Source: Candidatus Moraniibacteriota bacterium
GTDB lineage: Bacteria > Patescibacteriota > Minisyncoccia > Moranbacterales > UBA1568
Direction of reading: 5' to 3'
Length of the DNA: 51,638 nucleotides
Assembly (NCBI GenBank): GCA_037441965.1
Contig: JBBIRD010000006.1
Coordinates: forward strand, 1 to 51,638
The notes beneath the pieces were generated by a model, which saw only the letters and a list, made by a program, of their open reading frames with translations, ran no database searches and had not been told where the DNA came from. The position numbers were made by a program, and so were the translations under genes. This document shows, piece after piece, positions 37,550 to 40,942 of this stretch; position 1 is the stretch's first letter; each line of letters starts with the position of its first letter.

Positions 37550-38113
37550 TCATTTCTCTCCATTTTGAATCTTTTTCACTATTTGATCAACTTGTGCATA
37601 CAACTCTTCAAGAGTTCCATCATTATTAATAACAAAATCCGCGCGTTCTTTCAAGTCACGAATCTGTTTTTCTGTCTCAAGTAACGCATCCTTCTCGAAT
37701 TGTACTTCCGTTTTCATCATATCATCAGTATTCTGGCGTCTTTGTATCAAACGTTTATATCTCGCTTCAGCTGAAGTTTCTACATATACAAGATAAAAAT
37801 GTGTTTCATTTTCCAAATGCACAATATCAGAATATCGACGAATACCATCAACAACCACAAGAGTACTCTCACTTTTCTTCGCCTCCGTCAAAATAACTCG
37901 CGAAAAAATATCTTCGCCAAACGCCTTCCTGACATACAGAGAAAGCTTCGCCATATTTTCTCTATTCTGATCAAAATACAATCGATCCAGTATATCTCGT
38001 AATGGTTGAGAAAAACGAATTGAAGAAGCGTTATATTGTTTGGCAATGTATTTTCCCACAGTATCCTTACCTGATGCTATTTCTCCTGAAATCCCTAAAA
38101 TTATTTTCTGCAT
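37550..38113 (-). CDS. P-loop nucleoside-monophosphate kinase-like protein (dNMP kinase/dephospho-CoA kinase fold)
   Basis: GEIASGKDT, FSQPLR, VVDGIR, ADFVINNDG. Confidence 0.75.
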   Translation of the reverse strand: MQKIILGISGEIASGKDTVGKYIAKQYNASSIRFSQPLRDILDRLYFDQNRENMAKLSLYVRKAFGEDIFSRVILTEAKKSESTLVVVDGIRRYSDIVHLENETHFYLVYVETSAEARYKRLIQRRQNTDDMMKTEVQFEKDALLETEKQIRDLKERADFVINNDGTLEELYAQVDQIVKKIQNGEK

Positions 38114-38135: not shown

Positions 38136-38624
38136 TTATCTCTCCATTACAACAAATGAAAATATATGTTCATCATTACTTATTTTTTCTTCACTTATTT
38201 TTTTTGTAAACTCATCATACGGAGGGAAAAAAGTATCAGCATCGTATACCCCTGATACAAGCGTCAAATATAAACGATCCACACGAGGAAGAAATTGTTT
38301 GTAAATACTGGCTCCTCCAATAATAAATATCTCTTCTTTCTCATATTTATTTGCTTCATTTATGGCTTCATCAAGGGATGAAACAACAATACAACCTTCA
38401 GGAGAAAAACCTTCTGTTAGAGATAAAATAATGTTTGTTCGATGAGGCAAAGGTCGTCCAATAGAGTGATATGTATTTTCACCCATCACCACTGTATGTC
38501 CTGCTGTTAATTCCTTAAAATGTTTCAGATCTTCAGAAATGTGCCATAAAAGATGATTATCTTTTCCGATACCTCTCTTCTCATCAATTGCCACAATAAT
38601 ACTCAAACGAGGTTTTTTCATCAT
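38136..38624 (-). CDS. folA: Dihydrofolate reductase
   Basis: IGKDNHLLWHISEDL..FK, SIGRPLP.R.N, IIGGASIY, DTFFP; ATGA overlap with thyA. Confidence 0.95.
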   Translation of the reverse strand: MMKKPRLSIIVAIDEKRGIGKDNHLLWHISEDLKHFKELTAGHTVVMGENTYHSIGRPLPHRTNIILSLTEGFSPEGCIVVSSLDEAINEANKYEKEEIFIIGGASIYKQFLPRVDRLYLTLVSGVYDADTFFPPYDEFTKKISEEKISNDEHIFSFVVMER

Positions 38625-39667
38625 AAACTATTTTTCTTGAGAGTAAATAATGTATTATCTTTCTTCTCAAAACCACCAATATTCGCAATCTCTGCACGAA
38701 TCGCCGGATGAGGATCATACCCTTCGATCATAATATCTTCAAAAACAAAATCATCAATACTCTTCCTTTCGGGATTGAGAACGAGCTTCGGAAATGGTTT
38801 TGGTTCACGAGTCAGTTGCTCTTTCGCTTGATCAAAATGATTGCTATAAATATGGGCATCGCCAAAAAAATGTACAAACTCTCCTGCTTTGAGTCCTGTT
38901 ACCTGTGCCACCATATGAAGAAGCAATGCGTAACTAGCGATGTTAAATGGCACACCAAGAAAAGTATCTGCGCTCCGTTGATATAGTCCCAAATTAAGAG
39001 TGTTGTTATCTGTTACTTGAAACTGAAATGTCGTATGACAAAATGGAGGTACTTCATTCGCATTACCACTTGATGCCATCGCATAAATAAAATCAGGATT
39101 CCATGCAGAAATAACATAAGACTTGCGAAATGGTTTATCTTTCAATCCATCGATCACCCAGGCCAATTGATCGATCTCTCTGCCATCGCTTGCAGGCCAG
39201 CGTCGCCACATCCGTCCGTAAATAGTAACGAGATCGCCCCATTTTTTTACAAATGCATCATTTGATGGAAGTGACTTCAATTTTGTAATAAAATCTTCTT
39301 GTGTCATTTCAGATAATCCTTCATCGGATGCTTGCTTGTTATATCGCTTCCACGCCCATTCGTCCCAAATGTGTACATCATTATCAACAAGATATTTGAT
39401 ATTAGAATCACCACGCAGAAACCAAAGAAGTTCATGAATAATACCTCGATGAAAAACTTTTTTTGTTGTCAAAAGAGGAAAGCCATCAGCCATATTATAT
39501 CGCATCGAATATCCAAAAATTGATCGAATAAATGGTGGTTTCTCGTTTTTCTCTTCATATTTCTTCAAAATCTCCGGGGTAAAGAACACTTCTTTATCTG
39601 ATCCTTTTTCAAGAATCGTTTTTACCATATCAAGATATTGATACTCTGGATGATGTTTCGTACTCAT
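38621..39667 (-). CDS. thyA: Thymidylate synthase family protein (atypical ThyA)
   Basis: FPLLTTKK, ELLWFL.G, IWDEWA, SAWN, CH..FQF, YQRSAD.FLGVPFNIASY, GDAHIYSNH. Confidence 0.92.
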   Translation of the reverse strand: MSTKHHPEYQYLDMVKTILEKGSDKEVFFTPEILKKYEEKNEKPPFIRSIFGYSMRYNMADGFPLLTTKKVFHRGIIHELLWFLRGDSNIKYLVDNDVHIWDEWAWKRYNKQASDEGLSEMTQEDFITKLKSLPSNDAFVKKWGDLVTIYGRMWRRWPASDGREIDQLAWVIDGLKDKPFRKSYVISAWNPDFIYAMASSGNANEVPPFCHTTFQFQVTDNNTLNLGLYQRSADTFLGVPFNIASYALLLHMVAQVTGLKAGEFVHFFGDAHIYSNHFDQAKEQLTREPKPFPKLVLNPERKSIDDFVFEDIMIEGYDPHPAIRAEIANIGGFEKKDNTLFTLKKNSL

Positions 39668-39686: not shown

Positions 39687-40247
39687 TTATTTCTTTTTTA
39701 GAATACGCTTCTTCTCTGGTTCAAAATGAGACCAATTATTCTTACTAAAACGACCAAAATTTTTATAATTATTTTCTACCGGACTTGTTAGTGTTGAAAA
39801 AACAAACTGTGCTATCTGCATACCAGGACGGAGAACTAGTGGTACCCTGTTGATATTTGACAATTCAAGAGTAAGGTTGAGAAAATGTCCCGGATTAATC
39901 AACCCTGCAGTATTATGCACAACTAAACCAACACGCGCCAAACTACTTTTTCCGGAAATTTGAATAAGATAGGTATCGCTCCCTACAAAATCTCGCACCT
40001 TGCCGAGCACTGTTTCTCCTGGGAAGAGATAGAAAGCTTCACCTTCTTTCACATGATGTTCTTTGGTATGAGGAAATATTTTTTTTACTGGATCAATAAA
40101 AGGCGTATTATGAACATCAGTAACAATAAAATCATTATCTAATATCACATCATAACTTACTGAACCTAAACGCTTTGGATCAAAATTTTTAATTGTAATC
40201 GTCCCGTCTTTCACTGCCTGTTTGATGTCTTTATCAGAGAGATACAT
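39687..40247 (-). CDS. dcd: dCTP deaminase family protein (atypical)
   Basis: MYLSD.DI, GKSSLARVGL..H.TAG, LTLEL.N, PGMQIAQ..F. Confidence 0.88.
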   Translation of the reverse strand: MYLSDKDIKQAVKDGTITIKNFDPKRLGSVSYDVILDNDFIVTDVHNTPFIDPVKKIFPHTKEHHVKEGEAFYLFPGETVLGKVRDFVGSDTYLIQISGKSSLARVGLVVHNTAGLINPGHFLNLTLELSNINRVPLVLRPGMQIAQFVFSTLTSPVENNYKNFGRFSKNNWSHFEPEKKRILKKK

Positions 40248-40258
40248 AAAGAAATATA

Positions 40259-40942
40259 TTAAAGGATAGTAAATGTTTTTTCGGTACCATAATATTCTGA
40301 CCAATGCTCGTTGTAATGAGCGAACATACGAGCCAGTCTTTCTTGATCAAGTTCTTGCACTTGCAGTCGTTGCATTGTTTCACGAAGATTTTTCTTCACA
40401 ACTTCTGCTTCTGATCCGTCAGTAACGATTTTTTCAAACTCTGCTATATACCCATAGCCAGCATTTTTATCAATACAAACAGTCATATCTTGAAAGGCAT
40501 ATTCTTTACGATCACGCGACCATTTTGCTTGATAGACACAATCAGAATCAAGGAGCAAATGATCAAGCATATCCAAAGAAAGATCAGGCATTTCAGTTTC
40601 AAACTCGAGACGCGCTGTACCATTAGAACTCGTTGTATCATCAATGGAAGCCTTGATAACGAATAATACTCTGTCGTTTGCTTTTCGTGTACGAATAGAG
40701 ATATTTTTTCCTTCGTACAGAATCTTTTTTAAAGACATTTGTTTTTCTTCGCTCACATACGGTGCAATATGAGAAAAAATCTTCTCTGTGTCCCCTGTAA
40801 TGAAATAATGATTGAGCTGACTACTTTCACCGATACATTTTGTTTCTGCATCAAATGTGTGCATCTTTGTAAGCAAAGCGTCTGCACTCTCTCTACTTCC
40901 AAGTAAAGATTTTATTTCTATCTCGTATTGTTCTGTCATCAT
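40259..40942 (-). CDS. CYTH (triphosphate tunnel metalloenzyme) domain protein
   Basis: ExExK (EIEIK) N-terminal motif, IRTR, LEFE, R.R..Y, D...GYG..AEFE. Confidence 0.8.
   Translation of the reverse strand: MMTEQYEIEIKSLLGSRESADALLTKMHTFDAETKCIGESSQLNHYFITGDTEKIFSHIAPYVSEEKQMSLKKILYEGKNISIRTRKANDRVLFVIKASIDDTTSSNGTARLEFETEMPDLSLDMLDHLLLDSDCVYQAKWSRDRKEYAFQDMTVCIDKNAGYGYIAEFEKIVTDGSEAEVVKKNLRETMQRLQVQELDQERLARMFAHYNEHWSEYYGTEKTFTIL

Follow-up and report, generated by a model that had tools for sequence, protein, structure and literature searches.

A thymidylate synthase variant, centred on Patescibacteria, whose lid and phosphate site are rebuilt

Thymidylate synthase (TS) is among the most conserved of enzymes and a classic drug target, and its four phosphate-binding arginines, together with the C-terminal carboxylate, are usually deemed invariant. 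In canonical TS the R21 loop (Escherichia coli numbering) and the C-terminal carboxylate move together, closing the site. Here we describe the product of thyA on a 51,638-nucleotide contig of a Candidatus Moraniibacteriota bacterium (JBBIRD010000006.1, assembly GCA_037441965.1; this whole stretch is referred to as the window). This ThyA is a new variant within the known TS enzyme family, and it belongs to a large 'GG[F/Y]-tail' subfamily centred on Patescibacteria. We consider it likely that it serves as the folate-dependent synthase of the cell, turning deoxyuridine monophosphate (dUMP) and methylene-tetrahydrofolate into deoxythymidine monophosphate (dTMP) and dihydrofolate, with its lid and phosphate site rebuilt.

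The closest described enzymes are those of the Lactobacillus casei and Enterococcus faecalis type (3uwl, 1lca, 4tms and others), which give both the best sequence match (E 5e-90) and the best fold match to the window ThyA and share with it the 'small domain' insertion after Trp83 as well as all catalytic residues. They have a DRT.TGT loop with R23, an S-R178-R179 motif, a short loop before the catalytic Cys and an A-V chain end, whereas the window ThyA has a loop 14 residues longer without that Arg, R-K-S, a pre-Cys loop 8 residues longer and a chain that runs 19 residues further. Engineered L. casei mutants (R23I, R178T, R179A/E/K/T and R23I/R179T; 1bp0, 1bo8, 1tsv, 1tsx, 1tsy, 1bo7 and 1bp6, as described by their PDB titles) are altered at the same positions and retain the fold, but these are laboratory point changes with no compensating alteration of loop or tail.

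The fold of the window ThyA is shared by T4 dCMP hydroxymethylase and the CMP hydroxymethylase MilA, which are evidence that substrates can change within this family. In these enzymes the base-specifying Asn177 and the ribose contacts are changed (Asp stands for Asn177 in the dCMP enzymes), and they are not known to be coupled to folA or to depend on dihydrofolate reductase (DHFR). The window ThyA differs from them in having a canonical Asn242 (Asn177) and His/Tyr pair and a coupled folA.

A natural precedent for a changed phosphate site is the Vibrio parahaemolyticus TS of the VAAP clade, in which Gly takes the place of R127'. This enzyme nonetheless makes dTMP from dUMP, with a Michaelis constant (Km) of 27 uM, and PMC6005164 calls its single natural Arg loss a first. 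The same source cites L. casei mutagenesis in which the R179 position tolerates change while the Km rises. Like the window family, the VAAP enzymes are a natural clade in which an 'invariant' phosphate Arg has been replaced. Their changes comprise one Arg-to-Gly substitution plus H147M and K48R, with R21 and, per PMC6005164, a normal C-terminus kept, whereas the window ThyA has lost both R21 and R127, has Lys for R126, keeps H147 and K48 and has a rebuilt lid. The tree presented below was built without VAAP sequences.

Changed and retained residues of the window ThyA

Residues were compared by alignment to E. coli K-12 ThyA. The catalytic core is in place, with C210, H211, E79, W101, W104, D234, N242, H272 and Y274 corresponding to E. 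coli Cys146, His147, Glu58, Trp80, Trp83, Asp169, Asn177, His207 and Tyr209, respectively (roles in part as tabulated, in E. coli numbering, in PMC6005164). A first-pass annotation, made from the sequence alone, had listed the catalytic Cys, QRS.D, the Asn of PFNI and HIY as intact, and in the alignment they are (C210-H211, Q230-R-S-A-D234, P240-F-N-I and H272-I-Y), so that its view that the chemistry on uracil is kept agrees with the complete catalytic set.

The departures that it described are also borne out. The DRTGTGT loop has given way to a longer, Arg-free segment: the counterpart of E. coli K18-S28 (KNDRTGTGTLS) in the alignment is KEVFFTPEILKKYEEKNEKPPFIRS, a stretch 14 residues longer that has Phe in the R21 column and contains no Arg from D24 to F46, with R48 directly after. 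PDSRRI aligns with PFRKSY, placing PFRKS where PxSRR is expected and amounting to S125R, R126K and R127S. At the catalytic motif, MALAPCH aligns with MASSGNANEVPPFCH; the first-pass annotation had caught the PPFCH end of what is in fact a loop longer by 8 residues. Finally, the extension that it put at about 19 residues is present, as the last E. coli residue, I264, aligns with N329 and is followed by residues 330-348. The window ThyA thus runs past the canonical A-(I/V) chain end; of 56 canonical sequences aligned with it, 46 stop at this point and 10 go on for a few residues, of which the first is Gly. In all, only R166 (R231) of the four phosphate-binding arginines (R21, R126', R127' and R166) is in place, while R126 is replaced by Lys182, R127 by Ser183, and a new Arg181 stands in the S125 column. 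The gene and its altered and retained elements lie as follows.

38621..39667, minus strand: thyA (348 aa; PF00303, TIGR03284), the only thymidylate synthase gene found in the genome
39530..39598, minus strand: replacement of the R21 loop, residues 24-46, DKEVFFTPEILKKYEEKNEKPPF (alignment, conservation and a predicted helix at 31-39)
39119..39133, minus strand: PFRKS, residues 179-183 (R181-K182-S183), with the dibasic pair one position earlier than in canonical S-R-R
39035..39073, minus strand: loop before the catalytic Cys, residues 199-211, SSGNANEVPPFCH, 8 residues longer, with Phe just before Cys210-His211
38966..38980, minus strand: QRSAD, residues 230-234, with the retained phosphate ligands R231/S232 (E. 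coli R166/S167)
38624..38680, minus strand: C-terminal extension, residues 330-348, IGGFEKKDNTLFTLKKNSL, comprising the family-wide GGF and then a subclade tail, [ED]KKD..F.LKK

Profile matches place the protein well above the cut-offs for thymidylate synthase, EC 2.1.1.45 (PF00303, 326.7 versus 24.3 bits; TIGR03284, 365 versus 108.35 bits; NF002496, 352.2 versus 325 bits). Its start was taken as the ATG at 39667; an upstream GTG start would lengthen the protein by 4 residues.

An AlphaFold2 (AF2) model built from a 111-sequence alignment has a mean predicted local distance difference test score (pLDDT) of 93.2 and a predicted TM-score (pTM) of 0.93. The segment replacing the R21 loop is modelled with a helix at residues 31-39 (pLDDT ~89-92), confidence within the core is lowest in the lengthened loop ahead of the Cys (pLDDT 67 for residues 201-210), and the score falls from 78 to 69 in the C-terminal tail. 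The best Foldseek matches of the model are the E. faecalis and L. casei enzymes (3uwl_A, E 4e-37, 47% identity, TM to target 0.93). In the sequence comparison with solved structures, no chain among the 60 listed aligned beyond query residue 329.

The new elements are fixed as firmly as the catalytic residues. In the query and its best 120 homologues, which are 70-86% identical to it and bear names including Candidatus Moranbacteria, Uhrbacteria and Doudnabacteria, R181, K182 and S183 are each found in 121 of 121 sequences, and F28, F29, E32, P45, R48, P207, P208, F209, N329, G331 and G332 each in 120-121. F333 occurs in 112 sequences and Tyr takes its place in 9; 75 of the 121 chains stop at GGF while 46 run on. 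Such invariance at this level of identity points to purifying selection on the new state. A wider set of 78 ThyA open reading frames (ORFs), drawn from 80 related loci, tells the same: 68 fit all four motif patterns, 9 deviate conservatively in one and the remaining one is a wrongly picked ORF, and DRTG is absent from all 78. The rebuilt traits are not due to chance. A sequencing artefact or frameshift behind the loop and tail is ruled out by their conservation across independent assemblies, and an alternative genetic code was likewise rejected, since the apparent internal stops proved, under table 11, to be ordinary stop codons straight after GGF.

The GG[F/Y]-tail subfamily

Among 1.84 billion cluster representatives searched, there were other 50%-identity clusters that lack R21, have R-K for S-R-R and end in xGG[F/Y] (P0122, P0124, P0125, P0141, P0190 and P0245, plus fragments). 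Within the family, the R21 loop forms a graded series that runs from D[KR]GTG (L102-L104) through DHNTG (e.g. L095-L101, P0124), VHNTP (e.g. L090, L093, L094) and VFG/VFN (L089, L091) to the long FFTPE of the window. A GG[F/Y/L/I] extension is found in all of these, and a pre-Cys insert of 7-8 residues in nearly all.

The first-pass annotation had proposed a phylogeny as a check on whether RKS and the GGF tail define a clade. In our maximum-likelihood tree of 88 sequences they do: 32 family members fall on one side of a branch and 56 canonical enzymes on the other, with a Shimodaira-Hasegawa-like approximate likelihood ratio test (SH-aLRT) support of 97 on all columns and of 99.3 after columns filled in <60% of rows were dropped, a filter that takes out both tail and insert. 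Among the 32, L091 stops at a contig edge ahead of its tail. Taking alignment, conservation and tree together, the surroundings of the 5'-phosphate are rebuilt, as the first-pass annotation held, and so is the C-terminal lid, as a conserved trait that defines a clade.

The columns that separate family from canonical sequences are HPE before YQYL, R21 to F/H/K, T26 to I/L, T114 to W, S125 to R, R126 to K, R127 to S/H/N, D139 to Y, L227 to F and the added GGF. The window protein carries all of the family signatures (HPE, a non-Arg R21, W at T114, R-K at 125-126, Y at D139, the 7-8-residue pre-Cys insert and a C-terminal GG[F/Y]). R166/S167 are retained in all 32 family members and the dibasic R-K pair, shifted by one, in 27-29 of them; across these columns, no new conserved basic residue appears besides S125R. 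From its residues, the phosphate site of the family appears to be thinned, not enlarged. The three members without R-K at 125-126 (L102-L104, 'DA[HK]N') carry K/R in the R21 column, which may be a possible compensation within the family; as they are one lineage, this counts as a single event. Position 27 is K/R in all 13 members that have Phe at position 21.

The tail is more variable. It is conserved as [ED]KKD..F.LKK in a Moranbacteria subclade and EKDR..F.KK-like tails occur in distant members, while that of the closest relative, L005, is EKKEKK only. With 75 of 121 chains ending at GGF, the tail past this point is not essential to the family.

To gauge spread we used an even sample of 301 Patescibacteria genomes, taking as a family match any that runs from query residue <=6 to >=328 at >=47% identity. 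Some ThyA match was found in 128 genomes and a family-type match in 31, the window genome and the unpublished G154 included (30 without G154); from these, 20 further family-type thyA genes were read as sequence. One member of cluster P0122 is labelled 'Candidatus Nanoarchaeia archaeon' and is the sole evidence for DPANN here; an ESM Atlas look-up of P0122 gave generic TS clusters only, with no usable taxonomy. Among 50,697 phage records searched with tblastn, 4,147 had a match, all at <60% identity; in the 12 listed, the match ends at query residue 328, and there was no family member among these. A full-text literature search, which covers articles and not their supplements, found no description of the GG-tail ThyA type, and two papers on the Candidate Phyla Radiation (CPR), PMC12455944 and PMC11974145, mention thyA merely as a gene in the parts available to us.

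Some related records have unexpected titles. Family ThyA sequences occur in many records titled 'uncultured Gammaproteobacteria', 'Bdellovibrionales', 'Kiritimatiellae' and 'Lysobacteraceae' (L008, L009, L016, L025, L067 and others). At least some of these metagenome-assembled loci share a neighbourhood of rplA ... thyA-folA-kinase-gatB, and their taxon labels look unreliable. Separately, the cluster representative P0183 (651 aa) has an intein-like insertion of ~340 residues at the catalytic Cys (PPC ... HNCH).

Genomic context and the predicted reaction

The genome comprises 828,571 bases in 31 contigs, with a completeness score of 100%. A single ThyA match was found in its 828 kb, and ThyX was not found. 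In the window, thyA stands in a co-directional run of genes for a CYTH protein, Dcd, ThyA, FolA, a P-loop kinase-like protein and GatB, and its TGA stop (38621-38623) overlaps the folA ATG as ATGA. The neighbours are these.

40259..40942, minus strand: CYTH (triphosphate-tunnel) domain protein (227 aa; PF01928, 27.2 bits), upstream of dcd
39687..40247, minus strand: dcd, dCTP deaminase family (186 aa; PF22769, 116.7 bits; TIGR02274, 129.5 bits), directly upstream of thyA
38136..38624, minus strand: folA, DHFR (162 aa; PF00186, 174 bits)
37550..38113, minus strand: P-loop nucleotide-kinase-like gene (187 aa; PF21448 DNMK, 37.1 bits; AAA_17, 38.4 bits), downstream of folA

The association with folA extends across the family, as a FolA relative lies <=4 kb from thyA in 74 of the 80 related loci. 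In five relatives that lack ThyA, a DHFR match was found in none and ThyX in three, the same-genus genome G298 included. The coupling to folA, together with its absence from ThyA-less relatives, points to dihydrofolate as a product. G298 itself has no ThyA or DHFR match and has instead a 499-aa ORF that matches Thy1 (ThyX) twice (G298:C4:22732-23901), and ThyA plus FolA thus alternate with ThyX inside one genus. ThyX is a dUMP enzyme. This alternation suggests that the window type of ThyA is interchangeable with an enzyme that uses dUMP.

Evidence on the substrate also comes from a gene fusion. A 538-aa ORF at L060:3407-5020 (plus strand) joins a dCMP deaminase domain (dCMP_cyt_deam_1, 77.6 bits, residues 14-132) to a following GG-tail ThyA (312.6 bits, residues 203-522) that carries FFTPE, PYRKS, PPFCH and NIGGF. 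The product of dCMP deaminase is dUMP, so the fusion points to dUMP as the ThyA substrate. Across 78 loci, the nearest upstream ORF is of the Dcd/dUTPase fold in 35, a dCMP deaminase in 12, NUDIX in 4, CYTH in 4 and of other families in 14, with no Pfam match (1e-5) in 9; a Dcd/dUTPase-fold or dCMP deaminase gene is therefore nearest upstream in 47 of the 78.

Two further arrangements were seen upstream of thyA. At 22 of the 78 loci (L016, L025, L029, L040, L083 and 17 more) the gene is preceded by one for a 180-aa protein that scores above the Pfam cut-offs of DCD and dUTPase alike; the five of these inspected are without the GKSS..R..E deaminase motifs and, where the Asp motif is expected, read QPGY or PPGY. 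At L052:3166-3981 (plus strand), the ORF immediately before thyA is a fusion of a cytidylyltransferase-like and a dCMP-deaminase-like domain.

Relatives of the downstream P-loop kinase are found close to thyA in 41 of the 80 loci. The best PDB matches of the kinase are the archaeal AdkA-like and UPF0200 proteins 3lw7 and 3h0k (E 9e-11), with T4 deoxynucleoside monophosphate (dNMP) kinase, 1dek, a weak match. A Tmk-like gene (30.5 bits) is found elsewhere in the genome.

Some observations weigh against a dUMP-using synthase in this cell. In the genome we found no Dut, all-alpha dUTPase, dCMP deaminase or thymidine kinase; a ribonucleotide reductase is present, and Dcd is consequently the only visible source of deoxyuridine nucleotides. 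The Mycobacterium tuberculosis Dcd, which we take to be bifunctional and to form dUMP, is the best solved relative of the window Dcd (2qxx, 4a6a, 2qlp). The window Dcd keeps the deaminase motifs, GKSSLAR ... LTLE, and it reads I-N-P-G where the aligned M. tuberculosis enzyme has I-D-P-G. The same Asn is seen in all 9 pattern-matched window-type Dcd neighbours, of 10 Dcd-only neighbours examined. The Asp of I-D-P-G is presumably the catalytic residue for dUTPase activity; as neither Dut nor dCMP deaminase was found, its change to Asn bears on how dUMP rather than dUTP would arise here. With regard to the lid, deletion of the C-terminal residue reportedly inactivates L. casei TS (the title of PDB entry 1tda attests only that such a study exists), and the extended C-terminus is a real departure from canonical TS. 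The tree, too, is unrooted and comes from a quick search with SH-aLRT as its only support measure, and its canonical sequences are best-scoring representatives and not a balanced set.

The dUMP may come from Dcd, from the adjacent CYTH protein or from another hydrolase. A CYTH relative lies <=4 kb from family thyA genes in 21 of the 80 loci, and the protein, for which no solved relative was found, is a candidate for the dUTP-hydrolysing step.

Lid mechanism, rival readings and significance

As we picture it, the two mobile clamping elements of TS would have been re-engineered together with the catalytic core untouched (Cys-His, Glu58, Trp80/83, Arg166-Ser167, Asp169, Asn177 and His207/Tyr209). 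The R21 loop would have turned into a longer helical excursion, the C-terminus would have gained GG[F/Y], plus a basic tail in some lineages, and the dibasic pair that the partner subunit contributes would have slid by one position, to R181-K182 for R126-R127. The phosphate of dUMP would be held by R231, S232 and R181'/K182', and perhaps also by R48, which is invariant in the clade of the window. Packing of the new aromatics F28/F29, W170, Y195, F292 and F333 may replace the latch between terminal carboxylate and R21, and the co-translated FolA would recycle the dihydrofolate made by ThyA. That both latch partners have changed while conserved aromatics were gained suggests one co-evolved replacement of the lid.

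Other readings of the same residues must be weighed. Drift in reduced genomes, whether neutral or degenerative, could have left a sluggish, low-affinity TS with no new mechanism, as has been proposed for the VAAP-clade enzyme, which is short of one Arg and shows a raised Km and reduced efficiency (PMC6005164). Patescibacteria genomes are indeed reduced and their ThyA is patchy, with any match in only 128 of the 301 sampled. We nevertheless hold drift to be unlikely: the new elements are invariant in 121 sequences, the conserved aromatics W170, Y195, F292 and GGF are correlated, family-wide gains, and AF2 is confident for the new helix. A non-reductive transferase, for example a dUMP hydroxymethylase of the kind that phage SPO1 has in gp29, or an enzyme of the T4 gp42 type, would require that the lid admit water and that no hydride be transferred. 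TS-fold hydroxymethylases exist, and the lid that shields the canonical TS site is the very part that is rebuilt here. Such a change of reaction is, however, extremely improbable, as folA is coupled in the window, near thyA in 74 of the 80 related loci and missing from ThyA-less relatives, which is expected only if dihydrofolate is made; moreover, no other thymidylate synthase was found in this genome, whose completeness is scored at 100%, and Asn177 and the other residues listed from the alignment are canonical.

The first-pass annotation had suggested a change of substrate, with the pocket rebuilt perhaps for dUTP, dUDP or deoxyuridine; the methylation chemistry would then be the same, the dUTP or dUDP would come straight from Dcd in Dcd-only lineages, and the rebuilt loop and basic tail would accommodate the other phosphorylation state. 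The lack of a found Dut, dUTPase_2, dCMP deaminase or thymidine kinase fits such a scheme, as do the Asn of Dcd in place of the M. tuberculosis IDPG Asp, the loss of R21 and R127 with the rebuilt lid, and the Lys-rich tail. On the other hand, cationic residues were lost near the site with only S125R gained, which argues against di- and triphosphates, and the invariant R166/S167 (32 of 32) are hard to square with a phosphate-free substrate. The tail is missing from the 75 members that stop at GGF, and tails also occur beside dCMP-deaminase partners (L035, L036, L054, L060). The L060 fusion and the 12 loci in which thyA follows a dCMP deaminase, within the 47 of 78 upstream genes noted above, are likewise contrary to it, and so are the nearby kinase with its dNMP-kinase match, the Tmk-like gene and the reliance of the congener on ThyX. 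The proposed shift is thus not upheld; an alternative ThyA substrate is unlikely, and the scheme in this form decidedly so. A more elaborate version, in which a helical flap and GGF plug replace the latch and, in Dcd-only lineages, an enlarged, tail-covered pocket accepts dUTP or dUDP and bypasses dUMP, is a very long shot. If true, the flap and plug would close the site in a manner unlike every studied thymidylate synthase, and the use of dUTP or dUDP would be a thymidylate route that bypasses dUMP.

A folate-dependent synthase acting on dUMP therefore remains our preferred reading. The GG-tail family departs further from canonical TS than the VAAP enzymes do, having lost two arginines, softened a third to Lys and extended the chain end, and it does so in about one in ten of the sampled Patescibacteria genomes, while in its genomic behaviour it is still like any ordinary thyA. 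For annotation by motif the family sounds a caution, and it is relevant to the annotation of nucleotide metabolism in the CPR. The family amounts to a natural experiment in rebuilding the lid and phosphate site of TS and is a candidate for structural work.

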